64,000 bases of DNA. Source: a virus. Position 1 is the first letter of the stretch; each line of letters begins with the position of its first letter. Of this stretch, positions 10,912 to 24,326 are shown in pieces. The notes beneath the pieces are model-generated. The model worked only from the letters and a program-made list of their open reading frames with translations, did not search any database and was not told the DNA's origin. The translations under genes were made by a program, and so were the position numbers. The stretch lies in IMG/VR virus record IMGVR_UViG_3300010370_000028, positions 1-64,000 of that record, one strand, 5' to 3'.

Positions 10912-11318
10912 ATCCCCTACAATACATCATATCAACAAACGGTCTTGGCATCGCAATCGGCATCTGCGGTGACAAGCAACTCGCACTACAAGATGCCACA
11001 CTAGCCGAAAATATCTATGGATCAAATCACAACGACTCTTTGTTTAACCATTTGCTTTATATGCCTAGCGTTGAGGCGTTTAGAAAATTCCTAATCGTAA
11101 AAGAATATTTCTGTGTTTGGGATGAACACTTTGCCCGAAACAAGGGTACTGGTAGTCGTGCCAAAGGTAATGTCATGCAATTCACTCGCCGCGCAATTAA
11201 ACGCGCAAAACTAATCATGGAATCTCAAGTCACCTATGAGAACTTCATGCAAAAAATCAGCAACCGTAATCAAGAATACATGCTTGGTGGATACCAAGAC
11301 GAACAAGAAGAAGAATAA
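10908..11318 (+). CDS. hypothetical protein
   Basis: ORF overlapping previous stop. Confidence 0.7.
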   Translation: MNPLQYIISTNGLGIAIGICGDKQLALQDATLAENIYGSNHNDSLFNHLLYMPSVEAFRKFLIVKEYFCVWDEHFARNKGTGSRAKGNVMQFTRRAIKRAKLIMESQVTYENFMQKISNRNQEYMLGGYQDEQEEE

Positions 11319-11319
11319 T

Positions 11320-11538
11320 ATGAAAGAATATATTAAACAACTTGCCCCAAAATTCGAAGACATGGAATCCGTTGTTGATTCTTGTTGCCACGAGTTAATT
11401 CACGAAATTAATGTTGCTTATGAAAAACTTGGCAAAGATAATCTTTGGGAGTTGACAGATAAGTTCCTAGAGTTTCAACGTCTCCTTCATATACAACTCA
11501 AAGAGATCTGTCCAGATTATAACTTTCGGAACTTCTAA
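11320..11538 (+). CDS. hypothetical protein
   Basis: start reassigned to ATG 11320 (MKEYIK). Confidence 0.65.
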   Translation: MKEYIKQLAPKFEDMESVVDSCCHELIHEINVAYEKLGKDNLWELTDKFLEFQRLLHIQLKEICPDYNFRNF

Positions 11539-11546
11539 TAATAATT

Positions 11547-11621
11547 GGGTCGTTAGTTAAATGGATATAACAAGAAACTTCTAATTTTTAGTTGATGGTT
11601 CGATTCCATCACGACCTACCA
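11547..11621 (+). tRNA. tRNA-Arg(TCT)
   Basis: acceptor GGGTCGT/ACGACCT, anticodon loop CTTCTAA, T arm GATGG-TTCGATT-CCATC, encoded CCA. Confidence 0.9.
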
Positions 11622-11646
11622 CTCTAATAAATAATAAATAAATAAC

Positions 11647-11898
11647 ATGTTTACATTCCTTAATCCAAAAAGACGAGTCGTAGTTGAGCATAATATCATG
11701 TCTAACATTGATGGTGAGAAATTTGATCCTATAGTGATTGATGGTAATCATTGGGGCGCAGATTTTGATCTTTACAATGGTGATACTTTGATCCATGATG
11801 ATGGTGAGTATGCTGGAATCCCAGTTACCTTCCACCAAACTTTCCTAGAAACACGCTTGACAGACGAGCAATTACTCCGTAAATATAAAAACCAATGA
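11647..11898 (+). CDS. hypothetical protein
   Basis: ORF. Confidence 0.7.
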   Translation: MFTFLNPKRRVVVEHNIMSNIDGEKFDPIVIDGNHWGADFDLYNGDTLIHDDGEYAGIPVTFHQTFLETRLTDEQLLRKYKNQ

Positions 11899-12131
11899 AA
11901 CTAATCGTTACAGAAGAAGACCTCATCCTTGATACCGAACAAGGAACTTATACAATGAAACGCGCCCATGAAGAAGATGAGTGGCATGCGATAACTGAAT
12001 TTGTTGATTTAAACTTTTACTATGAATCGTATGACGATAGATACCATGCCGCAATCTATCTTGTTCTCGATGGACAAACCCAAACAGATACAGCATGTGA
12101 AATCGAAGTAGAATATGCTTGCCTCAAATAA
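11895..12131 (+). CDS. hypothetical acidic protein
   Basis: ORF overlapping previous stop. Confidence 0.7.
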   Translation: MKLIVTEEDLILDTEQGTYTMKRAHEEDEWHAITEFVDLNFYYESYDDRYHAAIYLVLDGQTQTDTACEIEVEYACLK

Positions 12132-12132
12132 C

Positions 12133-12294
12133 ATGCTAGTACAACTGATGTCAAATGAAGATCTCATTAAGGAATACGAACTCCTTAATAACTTAATATA
12201 CGAACTTCAATCATACAACTACTCTCACATGCTACGAATACAAGAAGTAGCTAATGAAATAGAACACAGAGGACTAGAAATATACCAATACTAA
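12133..12294 (+). CDS. hypothetical protein
   Basis: 53-aa ORF directly after the previous stop. Confidence 0.55.
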   Translation: MLVQLMSNEDLIKEYELLNNLIYELQSYNYSHMLRIQEVANEIEHRGLEIYQY

Positions 12295-12463
12295 ATATGG
12301 AAGACAAGAAAGTAAATACAGGGTTTTGGATATTAGTCTACTGTGTAATATATGTTCTTATAGAAATGGCAAAAAAATAATGACCAAATAATAAAACGCC
12401 AAATAACAAATTAGCAAATAATAATAAGCTTAATAATAACTATTAGGCATATAGAGGGTGTCG

Positions 12464-12510
12464 AAACTTATGTTGCGGCGACCCCTACGGGGTCCAATCG
12501 CTGTAAGTTT
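12464..12510 (-). repeat. 47-bp hairpin element copy 1 (inverted relative to copies 2-11)
   Basis: AAACTTA-tgttgcggc-GACCCC-TAC-GGGGTC-caatcgctg-TAAGTTT. Confidence 0.95.
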
Positions 12511-12517
12511 TTGGACC

Positions 12518-12712
12518 TTATTTGATTTCGTAGCGGTCAACAACCTCAAGCGTCTCTGCATCGAGATGGACAACCATTCCATGCCTACCCTTTACAAGTG
12601 CGCGTTCTTCCGTTTGCTTGTCGATGTTTGTTTCCTTCCAGCTTGGGGGTAGTCCTTTCGAGTGAACGATGATGTAGGACTTATTAAGGAATTCCATTTT
12701 GTATGCTCTCAT
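12518..12712 (-). CDS. hypothetical protein
   Basis: ORF ending 7 nt from repeat copy 1. Confidence 0.7.
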   Translation of the reverse strand: MRAYKMEFLNKSYIIVHSKGLPPSWKETNIDKQTEERALVKGRHGMVVHLDAETLEVVDRYEIK

Positions 12713-12713
12713 A

Positions 12714-13082
12714 TTATTTTTGTGCTAGGATTTGTCTGCCAACGATGACAGCGTATTTTGCTTTGTCAATTGTTTCTTTTGAAACGGTTTCATAGAACTT
12801 TCCGATTTCTAGATACGGGTTGTAAGAAACCAAGACTCTTGGTTGAATCTTTGAGCCTGTCAGTAAGACAAGATCACCCTCTACAAACGCATGAACATTT
12901 TTCTTTCTTTCGCGCAGGACTCTTTGACGACCCGCTTCTGAAACTTTGAAGGTGACATTCTCAAGAGTGACCTTGCTGGCATGAAGCCAAACACGCCAGC
13001 CCTTTGGAGTCTTTTCTTGGACGGAGAGTTGTTTTCTATGTAGGTTAAAGTAAACCCTAACTTTTTTGTTGGTCGGTTGCAT
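12714..13082 (-). CDS. conserved phage hypothetical protein
   Basis: VYFNLH...F.VS.AGRQRVLRE.KKNVHAFV.G...YNPY pattern; TTGACA-N17-TAAACT promoter at about 13166-13194. Confidence 0.8.
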   Translation of the reverse strand: MQPTNKKVRVYFNLHRKQLSVQEKTPKGWRVWLHASKVTLENVTFKVSEAGRQRVLRERKKNVHAFVEGDLVLLTGSKIQPRVLVSYNPYLEIGKFYETVSKETIDKAKYAVIVGRQILAQK

Positions 13083-13222
13083 GATGTGAGTGGTGTTGAG
13101 GTTGCCGCTCTTGTCGGGCGAGCGGCGAGCCGTCTGTCGATATTCTTTGTACTTTTACTTGGGAAGAGTTTATCCCAATCATCCGATATGTCAAATTTTT
13201 TTTTGTTATTTTTTTGAATTAA

Positions 13223-13269
13223 AAACTTATACCCAGCGGACCCCGAAGGGGTCGCGGCGATGTAAGTTT
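13223..13269 (+). repeat. 47-bp hairpin element copy 2
   Basis: AAACTTA-tacccagcg-GACCCC-GAA-GGGGTC-gcggcgatg-TAAGTTT. Confidence 0.95.
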
Positions 13270-13305
13270 TGGTCACGAAATTTGTTTCATTACCAAACGC
13301 CTATA

Positions 13306-13509
13306 TCACCACAAATTATTTTCGTCAATCAGTTGTTCCGTTCTGTCTACAAATTCTTGAATCAAACCCATCGGGATTTCAAACCTTGGACAAACATAGC
13401 CATCAAAAACGAGATGCAATGCCACATCGACAATTTTCTTTTCTTCGATTGTCGCGTGGACTAGGTAAAGTCCGTATTCAGTTTCGAGGGTAGTGCGAAA
13501 GATGTTCAT
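13306..13509 (-). CDS. hypothetical protein
   Basis: start reassigned to MNIFRTT, after a TTGACA...TAGCTT promoter. Confidence 0.6.
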   Translation of the reverse strand: MNIFRTTLETEYGLYLVHATIEEKKIVDVALHLVFDGYVCPRFEIPMGLIQEFVDRTEQLIDENNLW

Positions 13510-13567
13510 CGACTTCGACAAGCTAACAGAAAGAATGCGATTGTCAAGAGTAAAAAGATTTCCATGT

Positions 13568-14266
13568 TCATGCGGGTTCAAGAACAAAGCCCGTTTCGTC
13601 TTTCTTGGCAAGACCTTTTTCTTTGAGGCCGACAATTTTTCCCTTGCCATCGAGAAAGCGGAGGTCGGTTTCATCACCGTCAATGACTGCATGACCATAG
13701 TATTCATTCGGCAAAGACTTGCGGAAAACCATTGCGACATTGCCACCCGAACGGAGAAAGGCAAGAGCGATTGCGCCATTGGTTTCGGAGCGTGAAAAGG
13801 TTAAGTGATAGTTGCTTGGCATCTCACCATTGACAAAACTAGTCATGCGCTCCGCGCTTTTCGTGTAGTCGTAGAATTGCACACTTGGAAAAGCGGTGAA
13901 AACATTTTGCCCGTTGAATTTGATTTTTTCCCAAGGCAGGTCGCTTGTGAGATTCAAGCGAAAGCAAGGTGTCATGCCCTTCTTGGTTGCGGACTTCATC
14001 GACTTGGCAATTTCTTTCCAAAGATTGGCTAGGAATGCTTGCTTGTCATGGAAGAACAAAAGTGTTTTTGCGATTCGTGCGCGTTGAACGGACGACATTG
14101 CGCCACGCCCAGCGGTATTAAGGCAAGCGGCAGCGCAACCCTTGCTTGCGTCTTTGCAAACATTAAAGCCCGAAAGGTTAGCGGGTGCAAGGTGCAAGCC
14201 ATAGGTGATGAAACCTTTTTTCTCCCCCTTGCGTGTTTTGGCGTTTCCTGTGTTGAGTAGTGACAT
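13568..14266 (-). CDS. GP88 (gene product 88) family protein
   Basis: C..AS.GC...CLNTAGRG, RLN.TSD..WE, QFYDYTK, NYHLTFSRSE, DGDE.DLRFLD and VGLK.KG motifs; leaderless promoter. Confidence 0.8.
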   Translation of the reverse strand: MSLLNTGNAKTRKGEKKGFITYGLHLAPANLSGFNVCKDASKGCAAACLNTAGRGAMSSVQRARIAKTLLFFHDKQAFLANLWKEIAKSMKSATKKGMTPCFRLNLTSDLPWEKIKFNGQNVFTAFPSVQFYDYTKSAERMTSFVNGEMPSNYHLTFSRSETNGAIALAFLRSGGNVAMVFRKSLPNEYYGHAVIDGDETDLRFLDGKGKIVGLKEKGLAKKDETGFVLEPA

Positions 14267-14399
14267 GGGCAAAGTGTATCATCTCAGGGGAGCATGGCAA
14301 GAGATTTTTTGCAGATTTTTTTGCTTGACAGTTGCAATTTATAAAGTGGCAAATACGTATTTCGTAAATATACTTCAGCCATAACCCATTAAGCCTCAA

Positions 14400-14446
14400 A
14401 AACTTACACCCATCGGACCCCGAAGGGGTCGCCGCCATGTAAGTTT
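14400..14446 (+). repeat. 47-bp hairpin element copy 3
   Basis: AAACTTA-cacccatcg-GACCCC-GAA-GGGGTC-gccgccatg-TAAGTTT. Confidence 0.95.
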
Positions 14447-14455
14447 TTTGTAGAC

Positions 14456-14487
14456 AAAAAGAAACCCCCGCCCTTTCGGGCGAGGGT
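14456..14487 (-). terminator. putative terminator of the DUF932 gene
   Basis: CGCCC-TTTC-GGGCG hairpin with an A tract on its left (T tract on minus). Confidence 0.55.
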
Positions 14488-14501
14488 CGTTTGCTTTGCG
14501 C

Positions 14502-15305
14502 TTACGCTCCAACGACAACGAGAGGTTCCATTTCGTCTTCAACCTCGACAGCATCGGCGAGGTCAATTTCCGCTTTGATCGTCGGGCTATGTCCCGCGAT
14601 GCGGTCGAAAACAGATTGAGCGGTCATCGTGCGAAACGGCAACTTGGACAGATCACCGCCCTTGAGGTTTTCGGTGATGGAGTTGTAAAGCGTCCACAAA
14701 GTGCCGCCCTTGAACTCGTCGTGGCGAGGGTTGCGGAACTCTTGAACAGCGGCGTAAATGTCACGCGATGGAAACGCTTTCGCGTCTACAAGGTCGATGA
14801 GCAAGTCAGCGGCACGATCACGCGAGATTTCGGTCTGCTTGTAAAGCTCGATGCGCTTGCCCATATCATTCCAGTGCGAGACAACGCGAGCGACTGCATC
14901 GGAAAGAACGCGAGGCAAGTCAGCGAGGATGTTCGTGGTGTGACGACGAGCGAGCTTGATGTCGGACGAGAAGCAAAGATTCTCGCAAACCATCATGCGA
15001 TTACCCACGCAAATGCTCGCGGCAAAGGACTTGTCATGAGCGTTGCGGAGTCCAAGCACGATTTGACGATCCGCGCCAGTAATGTCCGCGCCCTTGAGAG
15101 CAAACCCGCCAAAGTAGCGTTGACCGCCACGCGCAAGCGAATGTTCTTCAAGCGAAACGCCAAGCCCTGCACGATTGATTGCCTCACGAGTCATTTCGAC
15201 AAGCGAGAAATGCGGGATGGGTTGGAAGCGGTCGGACGCTTCGGGAGTCTCAACGCCCATGAGTTGTTCGGCGTTCACTTTGTTTTTTGCGATGATCAAT
15301 GACAT
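14502..15305 (-). CDS. DUF932 domain protein
   Basis: PIPH, LGLRNAHDKS, G.R..VC.N, RRHT and TLW.LYN..TE motifs. Confidence 0.8.
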   Translation of the reverse strand: MSLIIAKNKVNAEQLMGVETPEASDRFQPIPHFSLVEMTREAINRAGLGVSLEEHSLARGGQRYFGGFALKGADITGADRQIVLGLRNAHDKSFAASICVGNRMMVCENLCFSSDIKLARRHTTNILADLPRVLSDAVARVVSHWNDMGKRIELYKQTEISRDRAADLLIDLVDAKAFPSRDIYAAVQEFRNPRHDEFKGGTLWTLYNSITENLKGGDLSKLPFRTMTAQSVFDRIAGHSPTIKAEIDLADAVEVEDEMEPLVVVGA

Positions 15306-15457
15306 ATTGTTTTTTTTTCTATTGGTTGGAGTTGTTGCGCCGTCAGTGGCGACAAAGGAAAGATAGCAAAAACCGCGAACTTGTCCACACTTTTTTGATT
15401 ATTTTTGTGCTTTTTATTTTCGAGCCAGGTGACATTTCGTAAGTGATTGAGGATCAA

Positions 15458-15504
15458 AAACTTACACCACCAAGACCCCTTCGGGGTCGCCGCCATGTAA
15501 GTTT
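15458..15504 (+). repeat. 47-bp hairpin element copy 4
   Basis: AAACTTA-caccaccaa-GACCCC-TTC-GGGGTC-gccgccatg-TAAGTTT. Confidence 0.95.
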
Positions 15505-15555
15505 TCTAGCCATAAGTTAGGAAGGGATCGCATTTTGCGACCCCTTCCCGTTATG

Positions 15556-15837
15556 TCAACACGCTACCCTTGCGAAACTTCTGATTGGATGATCGCCATT
15601 CACTTGATGTAGAAAGTCGATTGTCGGTGAGCCGCCGAATTTGTTTTGGTAGGCTTTAAGAAATGCCCCCAAGTCGCAGTCTTCTTCAAGGTAGAAGTTG
15701 TCTGCATCTTGGTAGCTGTATCGACTCAACTTAACTCCAAGGGCTTCGACTTCTTTCTTGGGGACTTCAAGCCATCCATGTCCAGAGTCGGTGTGGAGTT
15801 TAAGAACTAGTTTTTGGGGTGTGGTTGTTGCGGTCAT
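15556..15837 (-). CDS. conserved phage hypothetical protein
   Basis: D.GHGWL.V...S.YSY...YLEEDCD motif; hairpin at about 15520-15549 downstream. Confidence 0.8.
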   Translation of the reverse strand: MTATTTPQKLVLKLHTDSGHGWLEVPKKEVEALGVKLSRYSYQDADNFYLEEDCDLGAFLKAYQNKFGGSPTIDFLHQVNGDHPIRSFARVAC

Positions 15838-15988
15838 GCTGTTATTACTTCGTGGGAGAGAGGTTGGATCATTTTGATGAGGAAGTCAATTACTTTTTTC
15901 GGTTGCTCATTAAGAAGAGGATGAGAGCCATGCCGATTATCCATGCGATATTCAATGTGTCCATTGTGGATGATAAAAACAAGATGTT

Positions 15989-16297
15989 TCATTTTGTGTA
16001 TTTAGTTGTAAACGCTACGATGTCTTCGGCAAGATTGTTGATCAATTCTTCAACAAAGGCAAGACCATTTCCTTCGTCCATTGGATGCAGGTCGATTTTA
16101 GTCATTGGTTGCCAGACATCAATCATTTCTTGATCTTCCTGCCTAGCTTCTTCGCTGTCTTCATCAGCAAGCAAAGCAAGAGCAAGCCTTTCAGCATTCC
16201 AATCTTGAGGCCACTTGGAAAGGAAGTGACCAGCGGCAAGGAGGTATGCATCATTGTGCATGGGGATTCGTGTGTCGAGTGGGGCGTATTCGTTCAT
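15989..16297 (-). CDS. acidic hypothetical protein
   Basis: ORF in the minus-strand run. Confidence 0.7.
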   Translation of the reverse strand: MNEYAPLDTRIPMHNDAYLLAAGHFLSKWPQDWNAERLALALLADEDSEEARQEDQEMIDVWQPMTKIDLHPMDEGNGLAFVEELINNLAEDIVAFTTKYTK

Positions 16298-16306
16298 GGG
16301 GAAAGG

Positions 16307-16471
16307 TTAGTTGTCTTGGTTGTGTTCGTCAAGAATTTCTTGCAATGCTTTTTCTAGTTCTTGAGCCATTTCGCTATCATTGCCAGAGGATTCGTATGCG
16401 TATTCGATTGCTTGTTCAGCAACGCATTTGAGTTGGTCAATTGTGTTTAGTAGTTTTTCGATTGTGGTCAT
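16307..16471 (-). CDS. small acidic helical protein
   Basis: 54-aa ORF MTTIEKLLNTIDQL...; below the track cutoff. Confidence 0.6.
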   Translation of the reverse strand: MTTIEKLLNTIDQLKCVAEQAIEYAYESSGNDSEMAQELEKALQEILDEHNQDN

Positions 16472-16482
16472 GTGTTTGGGGG

Positions 16483-16824
16483 TTAGTTTGTTGGGATGAA
16501 TCTACGAGCAGGAATGCAAAGTGTCAAGCACCATTTTTTCCAATTCTCACCATGAAAGTCATTGCGGCCATTCTTTTTGTATGTGCCAAAGAGATTGATT
16601 CTTTCGGTTATGTCAAGAGCGTGTGCAAGCTCATGCAGGAAAACTTCTTGGAAGAGAGAGAACCTCGAAAGGATTTGGCGCGAGAGTTCTATCTTCTTTG
16701 ATTGAACGCGATAGCAACCCAATCTTTTTTTTGTGTTTGTCCATTCAACAGGCATTGATTCCAATTTGTATTGGCGCAATGTCAAGCGAATGTATTGTTC
16801 GGCTTCTTGTTTTGTGACTTGCAT
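16483..16824 (-). CDS. SprT-like zinc metalloprotease
   Basis: RLG.Y...IELS, LHELAHA and HG..WK motifs. Confidence 0.8.
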   Translation of the reverse strand: MQVTKQEAEQYIRLTLRQYKLESMPVEWTNTKKRLGCYRVQSKKIELSRQILSRFSLFQEVFLHELAHALDITERINLFGTYKKNGRNDFHGENWKKWCLTLCIPARRFIPTN

Positions 16825-16882
16825 AGTGACAGGGACAAAGTATCCAAAAACAAAGCATTGTCAAGAGATTTTTTAACCATTA

Positions 16883-16929
16883 AAACTTATGTCTTGCGGA
16901 CCCCGTAGGGGTCGCGGTGCTGTAAGTTT
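16883..16929 (+). repeat. 47-bp hairpin element copy 5
   Basis: AAACTTA-tgtcttgcg-GACCCC-GTA-GGGGTC-gcggtgctg-TAAGTTT. Confidence 0.95.
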
Positions 16930-16946
16930 TGCACCACGACTATTTT

Positions 16947-17432
16947 TTAGGTGTCAGCAGGAATTTCTTCGTCTTGGTCGTATTCGACAAAGTTAAAGTT
17001 TTCTTTTGCAAACTCCAAGACATCTTCGGCATCAACACCACGATCATCAACTTCACCTTTGGAGATGATAGCAGTCCCAGCGAACCAGCAACCGCTCTCA
17101 AAGTAGTCAAGCGTGAACTCGTCATGCGGAAACATTTCAGACAAGGCGGCGATGATTTCAATCGGTGGACTCCAAGCAGTCATGAATTGAGCTTGAAAGT
17201 CGGAATCTTCAGAGATGAGTTGATCGGCAACATCGCGTTGCTCTTCTTCACTCAAGTCCCATTTCGTTCCCCAGTTCTCAAGTCTCCATTGATACCATCC
17301 GCCGTTTTCACCAAGCAATTCTGGAGGTGTGGGTTTGATCTTCTCGAAAGAAAGACCATTTTCTTTTAGGTAGTTCTCCAATTCTGGAGAGCAGTCGGCA
17401 ATGTTTAGGATATTTTCGCACCAATTTGGCAT
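16947..17432 (-). CDS. YubB/Api92-like (DUF1281-related) ferredoxin-like fold protein
   Basis: MPNWC.N, WY.WR..NWGTKWD, F.TAWSPP and Y.E.G..FAG motifs. Confidence 0.75.
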   Translation of the reverse strand: MPNWCENILNIADCSPELENYLKENGLSFEKIKPTPPELLGENGGWYQWRLENWGTKWDLSEEEQRDVADQLISEDSDFQAQFMTAWSPPIEIIAALSEMFPHDEFTLDYFESGCWFAGTAIISKGEVDDRGVDAEDVLEFAKENFNFVEYDQDEEIPADT

Positions 17433-17470
17433 ATCAGTAGTGTATGTTAGTTTTTTATTAGTGTTTGGTT

Positions 17471-17641
17471 TTACATACAAGAAACAAATTCTTGATCGAC
17501 CTCGAAACTTCCTTCAAGATAGTCTCCATCTTTTGGAAGCGGCAAGTCTTCTGCAAGTTCGATTGCTTCTTGTAATGAATCGGCTTCAATTTCGTGTTGG
17601 CCAATCATAGACCAAACAACAGGGATTTTGTATTTAGGCAT
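17471..17641 (-). CDS. hypothetical protein
   Basis: start reassigned to MPKYKIPV; IEA.SL.EA pattern; leaderless promoter. Confidence 0.7.
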   Translation of the reverse strand: MPKYKIPVVWSMIGQHEIEADSLQEAIELAEDLPLPKDGDYLEGSFEVDQEFVSCM

Positions 17642-17672
17642 GGCAGTAGTGTGGGTTAGTTGTTGGGGTTTG

Positions 17673-17924
17673 TCAATAGGTTTTTGCAAGTAGAACAAGC
17701 GGCTTCAATGTGATCGGCCTTGTATTAACATAAAAGAAAAAACCATATTCCAAAACCTCAATGTCGCCATCGACTTGGGCAAGTGAAACATAGTCGTCGC
17801 CATGATTGTCGGCAACGAATGGGCCTACATCATCATGCCCGATAAAGTAAAGCGTATCGTTTAGATCGACAGCATAAGCGTCACTGAGTGCTTCGTGGAG
17901 TTGTTCAAGTGTGGTTGTTTGCAT
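17673..17924 (-). CDS. hypothetical protein
   Basis: ORF with leaderless TTGACT...CACACT promoter. Confidence 0.7.
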   Translation of the reverse strand: MQTTTLEQLHEALSDAYAVDLNDTLYFIGHDDVGPFVADNHGDDYVSLAQVDGDIEVLEYGFFFYVNTRPITLKPLVLLAKTY

Positions 17925-17950
17925 GGCAGTAGTGTGTATTATTTTTGGGG

Positions 17951-18142
17951 TTAGTCAACAAAGAAATTAAAGAACATCCACCCCCGCTTTCTTAAAAGAT
18001 AATCAAATGGGTTTTCAATTCCATCGGGGATTTGAGTATCAATTTCAACTTGTTCTTCCGTTGGGTTTATCACAATGCCTCGTGTTCCATCAACAATGAA
18101 AACAATTGGTTTGTCTTCAATGACAATTGTTTTTGTTTGCAT
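17951..18142 (-). CDS. hypothetical protein
   Basis: ORF with leaderless TTGACA...CAAACT promoter. Confidence 0.65.
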   Translation of the reverse strand: MQTKTIVIEDKPIVFIVDGTRGIVINPTEEQVEIDTQIPDGIENPFDYLLRKRGWMFFNFFVD

Positions 18143-18156
18143 GGGTGTAGTTTGGT

Positions 18157-18366
18157 TTAGTATTCAGCAGTGTCAAGAAGAAATTCGGGGATGTTTTCTT
18201 CTTTAAGGTTTTTATCTTCTTCAGTTATTATGAAGTTCCCGACATAGTTGTGTTTGTATGCTTCCATCAAATCTTCATACAAAGCACCAATGGCATGATC
18301 CACCATTTCCTCATTGTCCAAGTCAACGACATACTCCAAAGAGATTTTTGCTTTTCCAAGTCTCAT
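18157..18366 (-). CDS. acidic hypothetical protein
   Basis: start reassigned to MRLGKAK. Confidence 0.65.
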   Translation of the reverse strand: MRLGKAKISLEYVVDLDNEEMVDHAIGALYEDLMEAYKHNYVGNFIITEEDKNLKEENIPEFLLDTAEY

Positions 18367-18385
18367 TTTTTTTGTGTGGTTAGGG

Positions 18386-18526
18386 TTAGTCAACAAGAAA
18401 TCTGCGTTTCCATTGTGCATCTTGCACCTGCTTGTCAAGCCAAGATTGTTGTTCAAAGATACGCGCACCATAAACGGATTTGCGATTGCGTGTGAATAGC
18501 GATAGGATGTGGTTAATTAGTTGCAT
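18386..18526 (-). CDS. hypothetical protein
   Basis: 46-aa ORF MQLINHILSLF... directly after a TTGACA-N17-TAAGTT promoter. Confidence 0.6.
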   Translation of the reverse strand: MQLINHILSLFTRNRKSVYGARIFEQQSWLDKQVQDAQWKRRFLVD

Positions 18527-18677
18527 GGGGGAAACTTATCAAAAAGATGTGAGATGTCAAATTTTATTTTCAGAATAAACTGCAATTTTCTTCTTGACAA
18601 ATCAACACTAGCAAATAGCAAATGGCAAAATACTTAATACTAAATAGAATGTGTGTGCGCGTAAAAACAAGAATGAA

Positions 18678-18724
18678 AAACTTATACCTTGCGGACCCCT
18701 ACGGGGTCGCTGCCATGTAAGTTT
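18678..18724 (+). repeat. 47-bp hairpin element copy 6
   Basis: AAACTTA-taccttgcg-GACCCC-TAC-GGGGTC-gctgccatg-TAAGTTT. Confidence 0.95.
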
Positions 18725-18729
18725 TGCGG

Positions 18730-18903
18730 CTAGTTGAATATTTTATCTTGATCCCAGCAGTATTCAGCTACGCCAGCATCGTATCCTAAACGATACAAGT
18801 GACGATCCATGTCGTCTGTGAATGTATTGTTTTCAACTCCAACGGTGAACCCATCATAGAATCCCAGTTGGTAGGCTTTTTGTTTTTCTAGTTCTTCTTT
18901 CAT
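18730..18903 (-). CDS. hypothetical protein
   Basis: start MKEELEK; duplicated Y.LG[FY].[DA]G motif. Confidence 0.65.
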   Translation of the reverse strand: MKEELEKQKAYQLGFYDGFTVGVENNTFTDDMDRHLYRLGYDAGVAEYCWDQDKIFN

Positions 18904-18907
18904 TTTT

Positions 18908-19168
18908 TTAGTGTGCGGCAAGACAATGTGGGCAAACAGATTCAACATAGATCATGGATTCAAAAGTATTTGAATTGTGGCGAATGTAGTCTGTTGAACC
19001 ATATTCAACAAAGAAGTTCAGTTGGTGGTGCTTCATTAAGGTAAAGAATCCAGACTCAAACTCGACCTCTACATGATCGCCCTTGTTTATTATGCGAGAA
19101 ATTATTTCTTCATTCTCATAACCTGGCGAACCGTGTTTGACTTTTGCTCCTATGAGTAGTTTGTGCAT
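18908..19168 (-). CDS. hypothetical protein
   Basis: ORF with C-terminal CPHC. Confidence 0.65.
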   Translation of the reverse strand: MHKLLIGAKVKHGSPGYENEEIISRIINKGDHVEVEFESGFFTLMKHHQLNFFVEYGSTDYIRHNSNTFESMIYVESVCPHCLAAH

Positions 19169-19194
19169 TTTGTTTTTGTGTGTGTAGTTGAAAG

Positions 19195-19295
19195 GGTGTC
19201 CCCCGCTAGGAGTCGAACCTAGTCTCTCAGTCTATCTGCCAAACTATTCGCGCTTCGTTCGGCACTAGTGTCTGACGGGCCAATACTTCGGGGGC
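19195..19295 (-). ncRNA. tRNA-like / tmRNA-TLD-like small RNA
   Basis: acceptor-like CCCCCG/CGGGGG, T arm CTAGG-TTCGACT-CCTAG, no D stem, long interrupted hairpin in place of an anticodon arm. Confidence 0.6.
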
Positions 19296-19304
19296 GTTGG
19301 AAAG

Positions 19305-19514
19305 TTATGCGCGTGAGATGCGCCTGTCAACAAGATTTTTGAATTTTCTTTGCAGGACATCTGCCGCCTCGTCTCTGTCGATGAACATGGCAACAGCCAT
19401 TTCGTGATTCGTGAAGCAGATCATTGGCTTTCTGTTTTTTCTCTTTGGGATGCTCAAGTCAAAGAGTGAGGTTTTGTAGGTGTTGTTGTGTGATGTTCTT
19501 TGGATGGTGGTCAT
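19305..19514 (-). CDS. hypothetical basic protein
   Basis: ORF with near-leaderless TTGACA...TACTCT promoter. Confidence 0.7.
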   Translation of the reverse strand: MTTIQRTSHNNTYKTSLFDLSIPKRKNRKPMICFTNHEMAVAMFIDRDEAADVLQRKFKNLVDRRISRA

Positions 19515-19537
19515 GGCGGGGAAAGAGTAAGATTTTT

Positions 19538-19693
19538 TTATGCTTCTGTCAAATTTTTTTCTTCTAGGATTGCTTCAAGGGAAGAAATTTCTTCTTCGAT
19601 TCTTTCGCAACCTTCCCAGTCTGAAAATTCTTCGCAGAGTTCCATTTGGCGGCGGAGGTTGTCGATGGCGATGATTAGTGATGTGGTGGACAT
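19538..19693 (-). CDS. UVR (UvrB/UvrC coiled-coil) motif-like mini-protein
   Basis: 51-aa ORF not in the track; IDNLRRQMELCEEFSDWEGCERIEEEISSL; leaderless promoter. Confidence 0.55.
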   Translation of the reverse strand: MSTTSLIIAIDNLRRQMELCEEFSDWEGCERIEEEISSLEAILEEKNLTEA

Positions 19694-19835
19694 GTTCAGA
19701 GAGTATCACAGACCGATTTTTCTACAAGAAAAAAATGTTTCACTAGCTACAATTTTTCTGTTGACAAATAGCAAATAGCAAAATCCTTAATACTAAATAG
19801 ATGCGCGGATTGGTGCGCAACTCATTGAGTTTCAA

Positions 19836-19882
19836 AAACTTACAGCTATCGGACCCCGTAGGGGTCGCGGCGGTGTAAGTTA
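19836..19882 (+). repeat. 47-bp hairpin element copy 7
   Basis: AAACTTA-cagctatcg-GACCCC-GTA-GGGGTC-gcggcggtg-TAAGTTA. Confidence 0.95.
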
Positions 19883-19947
19883 TTCATTTTCAAGCGGTTA
19901 TGATCGCGCCCCCACCACAGAGGCGCGATCTTTATCCACTCACAAAA

Positions 19948-20112
19948 TTATTCTTGCAGTGCGCTTTTGAAACACGCCGCCCATGTCAAGGCAAGACAGA
20001 TCCAAAAGACGCAAAAGTTGAGATCTTCGGGGACAATTCCAAAAGCCCTCACGAAAGAAAAAATTGCAATGTGAGCAACTGAAAAGAATAAGCAAAGAAC
20101 AGCAGATTTCAT
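19948..20112 (-). CDS. small two-TM membrane protein
   Basis: 54-aa hydrophobic ORF MKSAVLCLFFSVAH... Confidence 0.55.
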   Translation of the reverse strand: MKSAVLCLFFSVAHIAIFSFVRAFGIVPEDLNFCVFWICLALTWAACFKSALQE

Positions 20113-20116
20113 TTTA

Positions 20117-20395
20117 TTAAGGGGCAAAGGTTTTTTCGATTTTTCCGCATTTGAAATGACGGACAGCTTCTGGCTTAAAGCTAAACCAGCCTTGATTGTT
20201 TCGATTGATTGCAGAAAAGTATCCTGCGGCTTTCAATCCATCAGTTCCAGCAGAACCAGTTCCTTTTATCAAGCCAATGTATTTGTCCTTGGCATTGATT
20301 TGGCGAATCGTGCCATCTTTCTTTTGAAAGGTGATCGAAAAGAATTTTCCTTTCGTGGCGGCGATCAATTGTGCGATTTCGTTTTCCGTGGTCAT
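20117..20395 (-). CDS. WYL-like SH3-barrel phage protein
   Basis: FF.ITF.KKDGT.R..N and C-terminal GW.SF motifs. Confidence 0.65.
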   Translation of the reverse strand: MTTENEIAQLIAATKGKFFSITFQKKDGTIRQINAKDKYIGLIKGTGSAGTDGLKAAGYFSAINRNNQGWFSFKPEAVRHFKCGKIEKTFAP

Positions 20396-20409
20396 GTTTT
20401 TTGTGTTGG

Positions 20410-20544
20410 TTATTGTTGTGAGAACATTTCCCGTTCCATCTCGTCGATTTCTTCGGGGGTCATTGTGGCTTCGATTTCATACACAGCCTCGAACATGGCG
20501 AGCAGTTCAAGGGAGTCGGCGTGGGCGAGTTGGTCAATGGACAT
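20410..20544 (-). CDS. small acidic protein
   Basis: 44-aa ORF MSIDQLAHADSLE...; leaderless promoter. Confidence 0.6.
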   Translation of the reverse strand: MSIDQLAHADSLELLAMFEAVYEIEATMTPEEIDEMEREMFSQQ

Positions 20545-20585
20545 AAGAGAAAGTTATTTGATTTTGAAAGAATAGCAAGAAAAAT

Positions 20586-20783
20586 TCAACCGATTTTCAA
20601 ATTTTCCACTTCGTTGGATGCGACATAGTTGACATCGCCGCAGTATGGGTCGCGGTAAATGATGACGAATGCGCCATCGCGGGTGTTGGTATCGGTGACG
20701 CTTCCTGTCAACTTCATCCCGCAATAGGTGAATTCGACAAAGGTGTTCGTGCGTGGGCGAGTGGTGTTGGTTGTGTTGGACAT
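20586..20783 (-). CDS. hypothetical protein (paralogue of 22866..23072)
   Basis: shared MSNTT..PRTN...GS.T....DG....Y....CGD. Confidence 0.7.
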   Translation of the reverse strand: MSNTTNTTRPRTNTFVEFTYCGMKLTGSVTDTNTRDGAFVIIYRDPYCGDVNYVASNEVENLKIG

Positions 20784-20889
20784 GTAAGAAAATTATCACA
20801 GCTAACTTGAAACGCAACAAAAAAAACAAAAATCTTTTTCGCCTAGTTGCATTTTTTTTCTTGACTTTTCATAACTCGTTGAGGCTCAA

Positions 20890-20936
20890 AAACTTACACC
20901 TATCGGACCCCTTCGGGGTCGCCGTGATGTAAGTTT
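20890..20936 (+). repeat. 47-bp hairpin element copy 8
   Basis: AAACTTA-cacctatcg-GACCCC-TTC-GGGGTC-gccgtgatg-TAAGTTT. Confidence 0.95.
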
Positions 20937-20954
20937 CACGACAACCCCTTTCTC

Positions 20955-21140
20955 TCACATCCACTCTTCCCAAAATTCCTGCTCAGTGATCTCGCGCACG
21001 ATAGCGCGACGAGCGCGTGACCGCCACCGCTCGCCATAGGCATCCTGCAGGGCAGACTCGCGTGTGGGGCCATGCCCAAGAAGGCAAGAGCCAAGGTGGA
21101 TAGCGGACGGGGCAACAACAATGTAGTATGTGGTGGACAT
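20955..21140 (-). CDS. hypothetical protein
   Basis: start reassigned to MSTTYY; leaderless TTGTGC...TATCTT promoter. Confidence 0.65.
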   Translation of the reverse strand: MSTTYYIVVAPSAIHLGSCLLGHGPTRESALQDAYGERWRSRARRAIVREITEQEFWEEWM

Positions 21141-21270
21141 GGGGAAAAGATAACTCAAACACCCAAAAGCACAAGAAAAAAAAGATTTTTTTTTCGTAAA
21201 AAGTTACAATTTTCTTCTTGACAAATACAATTGGGGGGGCTATGGGGGGGACGCGCAGCGTCCCATTGAA

Positions 21271-21317
21271 AAACTTATGCGTTGCGGACCCCGAAGGGGT
21301 CGCCGCGATGTAAGTTC
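21271..21317 (+). repeat. 47-bp hairpin element copy 9
   Basis: AAACTTA-tgcgttgcg-GACCCC-GAA-GGGGTC-gccgcgatg-TAAGTTC. Confidence 0.95.
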
Positions 21318-21337
21318 TTGACTTTCAACGGCTTATG

Positions 21338-21371
21338 AAAGCGGCGGGGGCTTTCGCCCCCGCTTTTTTTT
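21338..21371. terminator. GC hairpin terminator
   Basis: GCGGGGGC-TTTC-GCCCCCGC followed by a T tract; the same hairpin recurs at 23673-23692. Confidence 0.65.
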
Positions 21372-21375
21372 GAAT

Positions 21376-21711
21376 TTAACCCTTGACAAAACCTTGCCAA
21401 GACTTCTTGACAATTTCTTGACCATCGACACGAGCGGCGGCAGAGGCTTTGGAAAGTTCAATGAACTTGGCAACTGCCTTTTTTTCGGCAGAGGTCATTT
21501 GAGCAAGAGCGGCTTCGTCATCAGCCCTCGACCTTGAAGCTCCAGCTTTGGCGATGATTTCAGTTCCGACAACTTCAATTTTCACATTGAAGACATAGGA
21601 GTGACCATCAGCTTCTGCTCCCATAGCTTCGGCAATCTTGGCGATGGTATCAGTTCCGCGAACGGGAATTGTGACTTTTTCGGTGGTGGTGGTATGTGTG
21701 GCAGTTTTCAT
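21376..21711 (-). CDS. hypothetical protein (paralogue of 23703..24035)
   Basis: full-length colinear similarity, e.g. AMGA.ADGH.Y.FN, E.KAVAKF, W.G.VKG. Confidence 0.8.
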   Translation of the reverse strand: MKTATHTTTTEKVTIPVRGTDTIAKIAEAMGAEADGHSYVFNVKIEVVGTEIIAKAGASRSRADDEAALAQMTSAEKKAVAKFIELSKASAAARVDGQEIVKKSWQGFVKG

Positions 21712-21882
21712 ATTTGATGTGTCGCGTTCATCAGCGACAAGAGAAAGTTAGCATCAGAGCGGAAAACCTCAAGAAAAAAAACAAAAATCTTTTTTGCCCA
21801 ACCGCAATTTTTTTCTTGACAAATAGAATGGGGGGGCTATTGGGGGGGCTGAAGGGCAGATTCATAACTCATTGAAAATCAA

Positions 21883-21929
21883 AAACTTACACCTATCGGA
21901 CCCCTTCGGGGTCGCCGTGATGTAAGTTT
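21883..21929 (+). repeat. 47-bp hairpin element copy 10 (identical to copy 8)
   Basis: same 47 nt as 20890-20936; similarity extends into cacgac.acccct. Confidence 0.95.
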
Positions 21930-21947
21930 CACGACGACCCCTCACCA

Positions 21948-22028
21948 CTACATTTGCGCCGATATTATGGCAACCACAAGCCAAATCGCGGCATTTATTC
22001 CAATCAAAATTCCAAGTAGTTCTTTCAT
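21948..22028 (-). CDS. 26-aa membrane peptide
   Basis: MKELLGILIGINAAIWLVVAIISAQM; AAGGA upstream. Confidence 0.5.
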   Translation of the reverse strand: MKELLGILIGINAAIWLVVAIISAQM

Positions 22029-22032
22029 GTTT

Positions 22033-22149
22033 TTATCCTTCCTTTTCGATGTGTTCAAGATAATCCGCGAGCGCAAGTTCGGCGGCTTCCGCGAGGGTCG
22101 CGGCATATTCTTCGGGGCTGACTTCGGTGGCATAGTAGGTGTCGGACAT
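22033..22149 (-). CDS. 38-aa acidic helical peptide
   Basis: MSDTYYATEVSPEEYAATLAEAAELALADYLEHIEKEG; leaderless TTGCGT...TATCTT promoter. Confidence 0.6.
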   Translation of the reverse strand: MSDTYYATEVSPEEYAATLAEAAELALADYLEHIEKEG

Positions 22150-22256
22150 GAGAGAAAGATAGCAGGGGGTTCAGATAACGCAACAAAAAAAGTGTTTTTT
22201 ATTTATTTTTTTTATGTGTTTTTTTTCTTTACTTTTTGCAACTCGTTGAGCGTAAG

Positions 22257-22303
22257 AAACTTATGTCATGCGGACCCCGAAGGGGTCGCGGCGGTGTAAG
22301 TTA
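22257..22303 (+). repeat. 47-bp hairpin element copy 11
   Basis: AAACTTA-tgtcatgcg-GACCCC-GAA-GGGGTC-gcggcggtg-TAAGTTA. Confidence 0.95.
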
Positions 22304-22425
22304 TTCATTTCCAACGACTTACAGCGGCAGCTCAAGTGTAGTTATTCCATGCACTATGCGCCATGCTACTAGGAGCGTAGTAGCAAAGCACACAGCAGGG
22401 GCGAGGATGTCGAAGAGTTCGTCAC

Positions 22426-22650
22426 TCATATCGCCATGCCCTCCTCTTCTAGAAACTCCATCGCCGCCTCTTGTGCGTAGTCGAGTAGTTCACTCATGGG
22501 TGTCATGTTATCTGCTTCCTCGATCATCTCCTCAAGTGTGTCGATGTGATCGCATAGCAATGCGGTATCTGGTAGATCATCGAGAGACAAGCCGACAATG
22601 GCGTAGACTTGTGCGTTGATCATCTTTCGTGCTTTATTTCGTGCGCTCAT
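22426..22650 (-). CDS. acidic helical protein
   Basis: ORF preceded by an (AC)n leader. Confidence 0.7.
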   Translation of the reverse strand: MSARNKARKMINAQVYAIVGLSLDDLPDTALLCDHIDTLEEMIEEADNMTPMSELLDYAQEAAMEFLEEEGMAI

Positions 22651-22661
22651 GTGTGTGTGTG

Positions 22662-22841
22662 TTAGTTATGCTTAACATAGGATTGAAGATGCGCGAGGCA
22701 GTAGCAAGTCAACCCAAAGGTGACAAAGCAGATTGCATCAATGGTAGGGCTTTCACCTCCGTAGAGCATGAAGGCAATGAGGCTGAACAAGGGTGACATG
22801 GTGATGATGCCAGAGCCAAGGATAATGAATGCGTGTTTCAT
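22662..22841 (-). CDS. small two-TM membrane protein
   Basis: 59-aa ORF MKHAFIILGSGII...; (AC)n leader. Confidence 0.55.
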   Translation of the reverse strand: MKHAFIILGSGIITMSPLFSLIAFMLYGGESPTIDAICFVTFGLTCYCLAHLQSYVKHN

Positions 22842-22865
22842 GTGTGTGTGTTTGTGTGTGTTTGT

Positions 22866-23072
22866 TTAGTCAAGAGTCACTTTGATACCCTCGCTGTTCG
22901 TGCTTGTCCAGCAGTTATCGCCGCAAATGTTTTTGTAGAACACTTGCCAACTGCCGTCTTTGCATTGGCGACCAGTAAATGATCCGTAGTATCTTCCGAA
23001 TCCATCGTCAACGATGGCGAGTTGATTCGTGCGAGGGATGAAGTTGTCGGGGAGTGTAGTGGTGTTGGACAT
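22866..23072 (-). CDS. hypothetical protein (paralogue of 20586..20783)
   Basis: leaderless TTGCAC...TAACTT promoter; shared motifs. Confidence 0.7.
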   Translation of the reverse strand: MSNTTTLPDNFIPRTNQLAIVDDGFGRYYGSFTGRQCKDGSWQVFYKNICGDNCWTSTNSEGIKVTLD

Positions 23073-23240
23073 GGGAGAAAGTTATCAGATGATGTGGAGA
23101 GTGCAACAAAAAAAACATTTATTTTTTTTACAGAACTGCAATTTTTTTCTTGACAAATAGATATGCGGGGGGGTTTGGGGGGGACGCAAATAGCAAACTG
23201 CAAAATAGCAAATAGCAAATTATCAAATAGCAAATAGGTG

Positions 23241-23344
23241 GGGCGCAGGTCGGGGGCGCAGGGCGCAGGTCGGGGGCGCAGGGCGCAGGTCGGGGGCGCA
23301 GGGCGCAGGTCGGGGGCGCAGGGCGCAGGTCGGGGGCGCAGGTC
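23241..23344 (+). repeat. G-rich 20-bp tandem repeat x5
   Basis: (GGGCGCAGGTCGGGGGCGCA)5 plus GGTC. Confidence 0.95.
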
Positions 23345-23428
23345 AATAGTGTTCGCTTGAACATTGCAAGGGTGGGGTCTGGGCGTAAGTTTGGGCGGGG
23401 CGGTTTCCCGCCCCGCTTGTGCCTTGGG

Positions 23429-23650
23429 TCATGCTTTGCGCCACGAGCGCAAAACTTGCGCGACATATTCCCTTGGCACTTCGACCGCTTCGGACTTTTC
23501 AGGCAGGAAAAGCCGTGCGCCTTTGGTCAACTTTTCGCCAAAGTTGAAAGCGTAGGTGTAGGTGTGAATGATGAACCCATCGCAAAAGTGCGATGAATGG
23601 AAAAAAGGACGGAGTTCCGATTGTTTGCCTTTTAAGGTCTTGATTTTCAT
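23429..23650 (-). CDS. hypothetical protein
   Basis: start reassigned to MKIKTLKG; followed by a GCGGGGCGG/CCGCCCCGC hairpin. Confidence 0.65.
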   Translation of the reverse strand: MKIKTLKGKQSELRPFFHSSHFCDGFIIHTYTYAFNFGEKLTKGARLFLPEKSEAVEVPREYVAQVLRSWRKA

Positions 23651-23702
23651 GAGTCTGATTTTTTTAAGGTTGCGCGGGGGCTTTCGCCCCCGCTTGTGAT
23701 GT

Positions 23703-24035
23703 TTAGCCTTTGACGATTCCCGCCCATGTCGTGCGCGTGGCAGTTTGTCCGTCCGTCCGTTGCATGGCGTTTGCCTTGCAAAGATCTTGGAACTTGGCGA
23801 CTGCTTTCCGTTCCGCTGGCGTGAGGCTGACAAGGGCCGATTCCTTGTCCGCGTTTGAAACGCTGGCCGATGCTTTCGTGGTGATTTCCTCACCTACGAT
23901 TTCAACCGATAGGTTGAAAGTGTAGGCGTGTCCGTCTGCTTGTGCGCCCATAGCAAGAGCGATTTCGGCGAGTGTGCTTGTTCCCTTTACTGGCAGGGAA
24001 ACGGCCTTCGTGGTGGTGGCGGTGGTGGTTGCCAT
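23703..24035 (-). CDS. hypothetical protein (paralogue of 21376..21711), first gene of the early array
   Basis: leaderless TTGACT-N17-TAACTT promoter ending 6 nt before the ATG. Confidence 0.8.
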   Translation of the reverse strand: MATTTATTTKAVSLPVKGTSTLAEIALAMGAQADGHAYTFNLSVEIVGEEITTKASASVSNADKESALVSLTPAERKAVAKFQDLCKANAMQRTDGQTATRTTWAGIVKG

Positions 24036-24041
24036 GCGAGA

Positions 24042-24069
24042 AAGTTAGCACGGCACGGCATGGAGTCAA
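24042..24069 (-). promoter_or_regulatory. sigma70-type early promoter (representative of many in 13-24 kb)
   Basis: TTGACT...TGCTAACTT with upstream A/T tracts (UP-element-like). Confidence 0.7.
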
Positions 24070-24312: not shown

Positions 24313-24318
24313 GTGTAA
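24313..24318 (+). promoter_or_regulatory. putative late promoter motif GTGTAA
   Basis: recurs just upstream of late genes at 25585, 26324, 31598, 37975, 43668, 57010 (+) and 41577, 7604 (-). Confidence 0.65.
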
Positions 24319-24326
24319 GTATAATC

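Follow-up and report, generated by a model that had tools for sequence, protein, structure and literature searches.

A repeated 47-bp hairpin as the centre of a candidate 83-bp boundary module for early transcription units in an uncultured long-tailed phage

The viral DNA considered here, a 64-kb stretch (positions 1 to 64,000 of IMG/VR record IMGVR_UViG_3300010370_000028) termed the window below, is part of the genome of a long-tailed phage, with a 2986-amino-acid tape measure protein (PF10145), a large terminase, tail proteins, and a clamp loader. It contains a minus-strand island at 12.3-24.3 kb with a GC content of 0.45, versus 0.33-0.36 in the remaining window, in which the recognizable gene families are L5 gp82, GP88, DUF932, SprT-like, and DUF1281_C. 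An earlier note made from the sequence of this window had described the island as an array of early-gene cassettes punctuated by 11 copies of a symmetric 47-bp hairpin element, AAACTTA-N9-GACCCC-N3-GGGGTC-N9-TAAGTT, and had proposed that this element serves as a cassette-shuffling, DNA-entry, or transcription signal. Herein, we describe the anatomy, orientation, and distribution of the element, and we propose that it forms the centre of a larger module marking the boundaries of early transcription units. Megablast of the island and its neighbouring 10 kb against a collection of cultured phages gave no match.

A search of the whole window with the above pattern, allowing up to three mismatches, recovered the 11 copies (22 matches, both strands being counted), versus none in 100 shuffled sequences. 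The core GACCCC-N3-GGGGTC (at most one mismatch) likewise gave 11 matches, each inside an element copy; the pattern search found no copy in the window outside these 11 sites (Table 1), just as the note had it. The length, also described as invariant, is 47 bp in all copies, and a loose search for ACTTA-N31-35-TAAGT across 63 sources returned no family copy of another length or centre, its only yield being two unrelated matches. The 3' end reads TAAGTTA in the copies at 19836 and 22257 and TAAGTTC in that at 21271. By the asymmetry of its inner arms, copy 1 (12464) is inverted with respect to the other ten.

On the gene strand, copies 2-11 share a single layout, i.e., the end of a unit, the element, an A/T-rich tract, a TTGnnn-16-TAnnnT promoter, and the next unit. 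A sigma70-type promoter is present downstream of all ten co-oriented copies, with its -35 hexamer 42, 52, 94, 96, 97, 120, 123, 132, 134, or 141 nt from the loop centre. The -10 hexamer stands exactly 6 nt before the ATG in five units and 12 nt before it in one, so that the messages of these six units would be leaderless or nearly so. In the related locus L004, the element and promoter corresponding to copy 5 have been lost jointly as one indel unit, indicating that the two are gained and lost together. The element delimits promoter-gene units, as reported earlier, and the suggestion of a transcription signal organizing early units is supported in outline.

The 47-bp hairpin is itself only the core of an 83-bp composite, as extra box copies are found approximately 11 nt beyond each arm; the motif described earlier is thus present, but it is not the full unit. 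The composite consists of two imperfect 25-bp palindromes of an 11-bp box (TCAACGACTTA type) that bracket the GACCCC-N3-GGGGTC stem-loop, and what had been taken for an "outer stem" is the pair of inner boxes of these two palindromes. In the sense direction, the order is P1 (box-N3-box), N7, GACCCC-GWA/TWC-GGGGTC, N7, and P2 (box-N3-box), with an inter-palindrome gap of 33 nt in the window family. The complete unit of related lineages has the sequence TAAGTCGTTGA-N3-TCAACGACTTA, CR-N7, GACCCC-N3-GGGGTC, N7-YG, TAAGTYGTTGA-N3-TCAACGRYTTA, spanning 83 bp with a 58-bp period. The window boxes take the forms TCAAAAACTTA and TCAAYGAGTTA, the outer boxes being degenerate (TCAAYGAGTTA) and still recognizable downstream of most copies; across the window and 58 related loci, boxes B1-B4 surround the core in 108 unique composites of 95 nt. 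The 6-bp GC stem is unchanged in all copies of the fetched arrays, with one 7-bp-stem variant in the wider scan, and the inner arms carry a conserved difference between the two sides, rendering the element asymmetric.

This asymmetry allowed 157 of the 166 collected copies to be oriented, yielding 78 unique sequences; the loci L060-L062, as well as L048 (of the same kind as L061), were dropped before element variation and orientation were counted. The orientation of the element follows gene direction in all arrays, and the terminal copy faces incoming plus-strand transcription in the window lineage and lineage C, but not in lineage B. The loop is limited to four forms (GAA, GTA, TTC, and TAC), which in the sense orientation read TWC in 50 and GWA in 28 of the 78 unique elements, with no other triplet in the 157 oriented copies. 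The loop is thus GWA on either strand, a constraint not easily accounted for by a single RNA strand. It was kept in 36 of 42 distinct orthologous pairs, changed at its central A/T in five, and flipped in one; rapid loop flipping was hence rejected as a process. Directly 3' of the stem, T accounts for 172 of 546 positions on the sense strand versus 30 of 546 on the antisense strand. In some arrays, two full elements lie 96 bp apart, the second with other inner arms (L032 at 2348/2444 and 7064/7160, L059 at 1124/1220, and G021 at 64148/64244).

The exact element was found in the arrays of four IMG/VR contigs (8, 3, 6, and 4 copies in the whole records; none for a reversed-pattern control), and a shortened pattern retrieved 54 metagenome stretches bearing the element. 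Across 185,579 bacterial and archaeal genomes, only three single matches were detected (L060-L062), with flanks unlike those of the family. Arrays are situated at the same genomic place, adjoining conserved backbone genes that include a sigma-factor gene, and the copies are tightly clustered, with all ten of the complete 133.8-kb genome G021 within 64148-73767 and all eight of G001 within 40930-48841. A degenerate-pattern search for the box palindrome (P) alone gave matches in at least 119 viral stretches, and 80 of these (L065-L144) were analysed. Within the 80 loci, 77 of 104 P hits are accompanied by a further P at a distance of 8-44 nt; the spacers fall into length classes of 16-17, 25, 27-28, and 33 nt and are 80% GC, and GACCCC-N3-GGGGTC is contained in only 11 of 69 unique spacers. 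As the window element likewise comprises two 25-bp box palindromes with a GC-rich spacer between early units, it is, on the basis of its sequence, the 33-nt-gap variant of a much wider double-palindrome family. This large family is essentially undescribed; a literature search on the element sequence and on PeSLs (the early promoter and stem-loop elements of T4-type phages) led only to the PeSL papers and to that on Stenotrophomonas phage DLP6, with its wording of "predicted promoters in groups of two." Among cultured phages, blastn with a 96-nt composite gave only chance 33-nt matches in Gordonia phages. A Sigma70_r2 match was present in 19 of the 26 box-bearing viral records searched.

Other repeated sequences accompany these arrays. 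A 9-bp palindrome of CTTGTCAAG type occurs 3' of box B4 in 67 of 108 distinct downstream regions of the family, at preferred distances of 46, 64, 82, and 93 nt from the loop centre; on the minus strand of the window it is found, for instance, at 21230-21222, 21820-21812, and 18600-18592, 40-49 nt upstream of the -35. This palindrome probably represents a second protein site. In several lineages, a TTATTTGGCG-like word is directly repeated three to five times just past the last array element (window 12380-12460, minus strand; L023 ~8070-8140; L032, past the last element in the minus-strand view; L019, at the array end). These repeats resemble iterons and could represent an origin or a regulator array.

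The composite may act either through pairing of its arms or through the sequence of its boxes. Among 82 unique elements, the mirrored positions 9 and 39 hold A-C in 26 cases, G-T in 26, A-T in 25, and G-C in five, such that pairing there is not selected, while positions 4 and 44 display nine uncompensated and no compensated changes. No pairing scheme was favoured for the four boxes, which vary independently and without clear covariation, and in lineage D the boxes are kept while the complementarity of the two inner arms is lost.

The identical box is also present in the record of the cultured phage DLP6, with 27 occurrences on the plus strand and three on the minus strand, compared to none for a reversed-pattern control. 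With the exception of one solitary copy, the boxes on the plus strand are arranged two by two as direct repeats, at a spacing of 25-26 bp. At all six sites examined, a GC hairpin with a T run comes after the box pair, and a TATAAT-like -10 after the hairpin; the gaps at these sites (33, 43, 44, 44, 54, and 54 nt) correspond to steps of one helical turn, and all 12 boxes fit WATCAANNNNTTR. Being direct repeats, the DLP6 boxes cannot pair mutually, which argues that the box acts through its sequence. When the DLP6 box pair was used as a blastn query, DLP6 itself was the only match. In the DLP6 paper, listed terminators begin with TCAACGACTTA, and 25 PHIRE "phage promoters" are reported, 22 of them in groups of two (PMC5349666); from position and number, we infer that the PHIRE motif published there is the TCAACGACTTA box. 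Most simply, then, the box would be bound by a protein as double-stranded DNA, ahead of early promoters. The stem-bubble-stem fold of single-stranded DNA that the earlier note had envisaged for the arms is weakened by the direct repeats of DLP6 and by the lack of compensatory changes.

We therefore consider it about an even chance that the 47-bp element is the centre of an 83-bp, PeSL-like boundary module for early transcription units. In such a module, a sequence-specific protein, probably one that bends DNA, would recognize the four 11-bp boxes in double-stranded form, while the GC stem-loop with its T-rich sense 3' flank would damp or mark read-through from the upstream unit. Boxes and stem-loop would jointly shield early units from their neighbours and prepare the next promoter, a host-type sigma70 promoter 42-141 nt downstream from which mostly leaderless mRNAs would be made. 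With some ten modules per genome, the repeats would also provide a patch for ordinary homologous recombination, allowing units to be gained, lost, and re-ordered over evolutionary time. The elements would hence look like protein-docking and insulating signals ahead of early promoters, as opposed to integron-style recombination sites.

Given a boundary module, host IHF is the only candidate binder that can be named, and we would tentatively grant it a sizeable minority chance; it is put forward because the box contains the IHF core TCAA-N4-TTR. IHF, with the consensus WATCAANNNNTTR, assists early promoters such as lambda pL and Mu Pe. No HU/IHF gene was found in the related viral records G001, G002, and complete G021, and tblastn among the window, six related arrays, and DLP6 detected only PhoH, a DenV-like glycosylase, and a sulfotransferase in common, in a comparison that covers 64 kb of the window phage and would miss remote homologues. 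With only these three proteins shared, a phage regulator common to DLP6 was rejected as the binder; together with the missing phage HU/IHF gene, this favours a host factor. The relaxed TCAA-N4-TTR core has 17 matches in the window island, and the strict consensus is matched by 88 of 432 family boxes versus 12 of 12 DLP6 boxes.

Several observations weigh against the boundary-module reading. The distance from element to promoter is variable (42-141 nt) and shows no helical phasing, unlike in DLP6; across the family, Rayleigh tests gave p = 0.33 for the CTTGTCAAG motif and p = 0.06 for the -35. With respect to IHF, the strict consensus is matched at a single island site (0.1/kb, versus 0.2/kb elsewhere in the window), and at box spacings of 3 or 25 bp there is no room for an IHF-sized footprint on both boxes. 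Moreover, the sense RNA is stable, with fold z-scores of -1.5 to -8.6, and in lineage A the pairing of boxes is kept via G-U wobbles, on the sense strand only.

These last points are those expected of an element acting at the RNA level, in which read-through early transcripts would fold the composite into a long interrupted hairpin serving as an RNase III-type processing site, a 3'-end stabilizer, or an attenuator between early messages, analogous to the R sites of the T7 early region. A terminator scan for a hairpin with a T run flagged none of the 11 copies, nine bases separating the GC stem from TAAGTTT, and the claim that the element is "not just a terminator" is supported in the sense that it is not a canonical one. 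The gene strand of the island holds one strong canonical terminator only, making read-through likely. Orientation is tied to transcription direction, the inversion of the terminal copy coincides exactly with the point at which plus-strand transcription enters, and the 3' flank of the stem is T-rich on the sense strand. For five examples, the sense RNA folds at -24.8 to -47.3 kcal/mol, and in four of them none of 200 shuffles folded as well. Set against this are the zero compensatory changes in 82 unique elements, the independent variation of the four boxes, the occurrence of this box in DLP6 as direct repeats that cannot pair, and the retention of boxes in lineage D after inner-arm pairing was lost. 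Both GWA and TWC loops, with no other triplet, are moreover found in the sense orientation, and Rfam 15 yielded no family at E <= 1 on any element within 11000-25000. We thus regard an RNA role (attenuator, processing site, or 3' hairpin) as unlikely overall, yet it is the main rival to the boundary module and must be kept in consideration, especially for the centre of the element.

Shuffling of cassettes was another function foreseen in the earlier note. The arrays of four lineages contain common cargo families in differing order; DUF932, for example, is a single-gene unit between elements wherever it was called in an array, with differing neighbours. In every lineage checked, the early array lies 7-14 GC points above its own backbone (0.45 vs 0.33 in the window; 0.44-0.46 vs 0.31 in L002 and L005; 0.47 vs 0.40 in L010), and GP88 shows 84% identity across lineages in which the identity of backbone proteins is 43-76%. 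A cassette that is replaced between the window and L004 has copies 6 and 7 as its borders, and homology spans the whole element at both of its ends, as homologous exchange would predict. The 150 gaps found among 29 loci gave 249 distinct ends of synteny breaks inside arrays, of which 51 fall within 50 bp of an element centre versus 10.9% at random, i.e., an approximately 1.9-fold enrichment with some 80% of the ends elsewhere. Units do therefore change neighbours between lineages, but breaks at the element are a minority. In four DNA runs, in which short Logan contigs break at repeats, joints were found at elements and away from them, and no conclusion was drawn. One freshwater-metagenome contig (run X4) joins 12511 to 22255 on opposite strands, with 34 nt on the short side; this joint of the right edge of copy 1 with the sequence beside copy 11 is the junction expected for an inversion between them.

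A dedicated enzyme that excises and inserts cassettes at an integron-like or other site-specific recombination site would account for the changing neighbours (the DUF932 unit among them), the enrichment of break ends near element centres, and the cassette bounded by copies 6 and 7. Nonetheless, no tyrosine recombinase, serine recombinase, or Y1 transposase (PF00589, PF00239, PF01797) was found in G001, G002, or complete G021, these relatives, one of them 85 kb long, thereby lacking the recombinase and HUH candidates that the note had thought worth seeking. The same Pfam families had no match among 40 window open reading frames, bearing out the remark that no recombinase is visible in the window. 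Most break ends are not at elements, homology is continuous through the elements flanking the replaced cassette, element and promoter move as one, and the features of attC are lacking. We consider such a site highly unlikely. Changes in the arrays appear instead to fit homologous exchange at a repeated patch, as in PeSLs, and an integron-like system does not fit.

Mobility of the element itself is even less credible. A selfish miniature inverted-repeat element spreading by itself would likewise be palindromic, intergenic, and multicopy, but the present element is confined to one 10-kb array per genome (G001, G021) in fixed orientation, and the one element-only indel lacks a target-site duplication, with no transposase found. 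Less improbable, though still very unlikely, is that the composite serves as the recognition site of a dedicated protein, possibly one reading an extruded C-GWA-G hairpin, that moves promoter-gene units between phages. Lytic phages would in that case own a true system of gene cassettes independent of all known recombinase families, and the high-GC early array would be the exchangeable gene pool of a very large clade of sigma-encoding phages.

Extrusion of the centre as a DNA hairpin or cruciform could also matter in its own right, as an N4-type hairpin promoter, a priming signal, or the target of a structure-specific nuclease. A C-GWA-G triloop on a GC stem is a very stable DNA mini-hairpin motif, and the virion RNA polymerase of N4-type phages reads hairpin promoters with a 5-7-bp stem and a 3-nt loop, a shape that the 6-bp GC stem and triloop fit. 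The loop constraint is symmetric between strands, and the 47-mer DNA folds at -10.6 to -11.8 kcal/mol (z of about -3 to -3.8). An ERCC4-domain nuclease gene is encoded at 28775-29713 as well. Conversely, each unit is already equipped with a sigma70 promoter, and in most sister families the spacer is GC-rich but of different sequence. The virion RNA polymerase that the earlier note had thought of was not seen: the tape measure matches PF10145 only and is without a D-x-D-x-D motif, for which reason it was rejected as such an enzyme, and no RNA polymerase domain was detected in the scanned open reading frames of the window, which is part of the genome. We thus deem an extruded-hairpin function very unlikely. 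The gene at 28775-29713, just before the large terminase, combines a C2H2 zinc finger with the ERCC4 nuclease domain; its product is probably a structure-specific (debranching) nuclease, and could cut extruded palindromes.

A final possibility is that the element ends are outward-facing copies of a one-box GTGTAA late promoter that the sigma factor of the phage would recognize. GTGTAA stands 4-21 nt before the start codons of many late genes (virion and other), including the same backbone genes in other lineages, and a sigma gene is located 3-5 kb from the array. All ten co-oriented copies have ends of the form [GAC]TGTAAGT on the plus (antisense-facing) strand, and five of ten have them on the gene strand. 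However, across the family about a third to 44% of boxes carry C in place of the critical T (position 9, A 53 and G 25; position 39, T 44 and C 34; n = 78), and the DLP6 box points the other way relative to transcription. On these two grounds the late-promoter reading was set aside, and we hold it to be very improbable. Elsewhere in the window, a free-standing NUMOD4-HNH-AP2 homing-endonuclease-like gene is found at 6778-7287.

Table 1. Element copies, promoters, and other features of the 64-kb window
Feature	Position	Strand	Remarks
Element copy 1, terminal copy	12464..12510	+	Inverted; sense form on plus strand; plus-strand genes converge here on the minus-strand array
Element copy 2	13223..13269	-	Core of composite at ~13205-13287
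Element copy 3	14400..14446	-	Canonical terminator hairpin 14488-14463 just upstream in sense direction
Element copy 4	15458..15504	-	
Element copy 5	16883..16929	-	Element and promoter absent from relative L004 as one indel unit
Element copy 6	18678..18724	-	
Element copy 7	19836..19882	-	
Element copy 8	20890..20936	-	47 bp identical to copy 10
Element copy 9	21271..21317	-	
Element copy 10	21883..21929	-	47 bp identical to copy 8
Element copy 11	22257..22303	-	First met in direction of early transcription
gp82-unit promoter TTGACA-16-TAAACT	13167..13194	-	-35 52 nt after copy 2 loop centre
GP88-unit promoter TTGCCA-16-TACACT	14273..14300	-	ATG 6 nt after -10; -35 123 nt after copy 3 loop centre
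DUF932-unit promoter-like site TGGACA-16-TATCTT	15360..15387	-	
SprT-like-unit promoter TTGACA-16-TACTTT	16837..16864	-	42 nt after copy 5 loop centre
Promoter TTGACA-16-TAAGTT	18533..18560	-	141 nt after copy 6 loop centre; leaderless start
Promoter TTGTAG-16-TACTCT	19700..19727	-	132 nt after copy 7 loop centre
Promoter TTGCGT-16-TAATTT	20790..20817	-	96 nt after copy 8 loop centre
Promoter TTGTGC-16-TATCTT	21147..21174	-	120 nt after copy 9 loop centre
Promoter TTGAGG-16-TAACTT	21745..21772	-	134 nt after copy 10 loop centre
Promoter TTGCGT-16-TATCTT	22156..22183	-	97 nt after copy 11 loop centre
GTGTAA boxes	24313, 25587, 31598, 37975, 41577 (minus), 43668, 57010 and others		
Sigma-like gene	27017-27733		Sigma70_r2 18.8 bits (24.3 bits in G001)

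Ultimately, the integron, single-stranded-DNA, and shuffling-signal interpretation with which this locus was first described is mostly not supported, and the boundary module is the preferred reading. In uncultured freshwater phages of approximately 125-150 kb, a widespread group, every early unit is marked by the element. It affords a precise landmark for annotating early and host-takeover regions in metagenomic phages. It also allows the shuffling of early, anti-defence-like genes (DUF932, SprT-like, GP88) to be followed. As DLP6 and its Stenotrophomonas host are in culture, binding to the box and its effect on the promoter are directly testable.

Compared with known systems, the element resembles integron attC sites in being an imperfect palindrome with unpaired inner arms, positioned 3' of arrayed gene units. 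attC sites vary in length, adjoin promoterless cassettes, and carry the core sites R'' RYYYAAC and R' GTTRRRY at their two ends, whereas the element is fixed at 47 bp and is devoid of such sites: it ends in AAACTTA...TAAGTTT (CGACTTA...TAAGTCG in other lineages), AAC/GTT not being at the inner edge of an attC-type 7-mer. Its units further differ in owning promoters, no integrase was found, and breaks are not confined to the element, leaving the attC analogy of the earlier note unsupported. IHF-assisted promoters share with the module the TCAA-N4-TTR core in a box upstream of strong early promoters; the window boxes differ in being palindromic and tightly packed, with no fixed promoter phase and one strict match. 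DLP6 has the same 11-bp box, TCAACGACTTA, in pairs near a GC hairpin and ahead of sigma70-type promoters at the heads of gene clusters. Its boxes are direct, 25 bp apart, genome-wide, and helically phased to the -10, whereas those of the window are inverted pairs flanking the hairpin, limited to one array, and unphased.

The PeSLs of T4-type phages, also named in the earlier note, constitute the nearest published analogue. In these promoter-early stem-loops, a stem-loop and a strong sigma70 early promoter are placed at the borders of small early genes within a plastic region, are repeated many times per genome, and are tied to indels and replacements via homologous exchange; PeSLs are defined by the promoter together with a variable G/C stem-loop acting as a terminator (Arbiol et al. 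2010, PMC2839356; Comeau et al. 2014, PMC4122927). The window array is alike in that a stem-loop, an A/T-rich tract, and a sigma70-type early promoter stand together in ten of ten units, and in the gain or loss of element and promoter as one unit (L004). It differs in that the window element is a rigid, sequence-invariant 83-bp double palindrome, 42-141 nt from its promoter, that fails a terminator scan, and in that the phage is long-tailed with its own sigma factor, rather than a T4-type myovirus.

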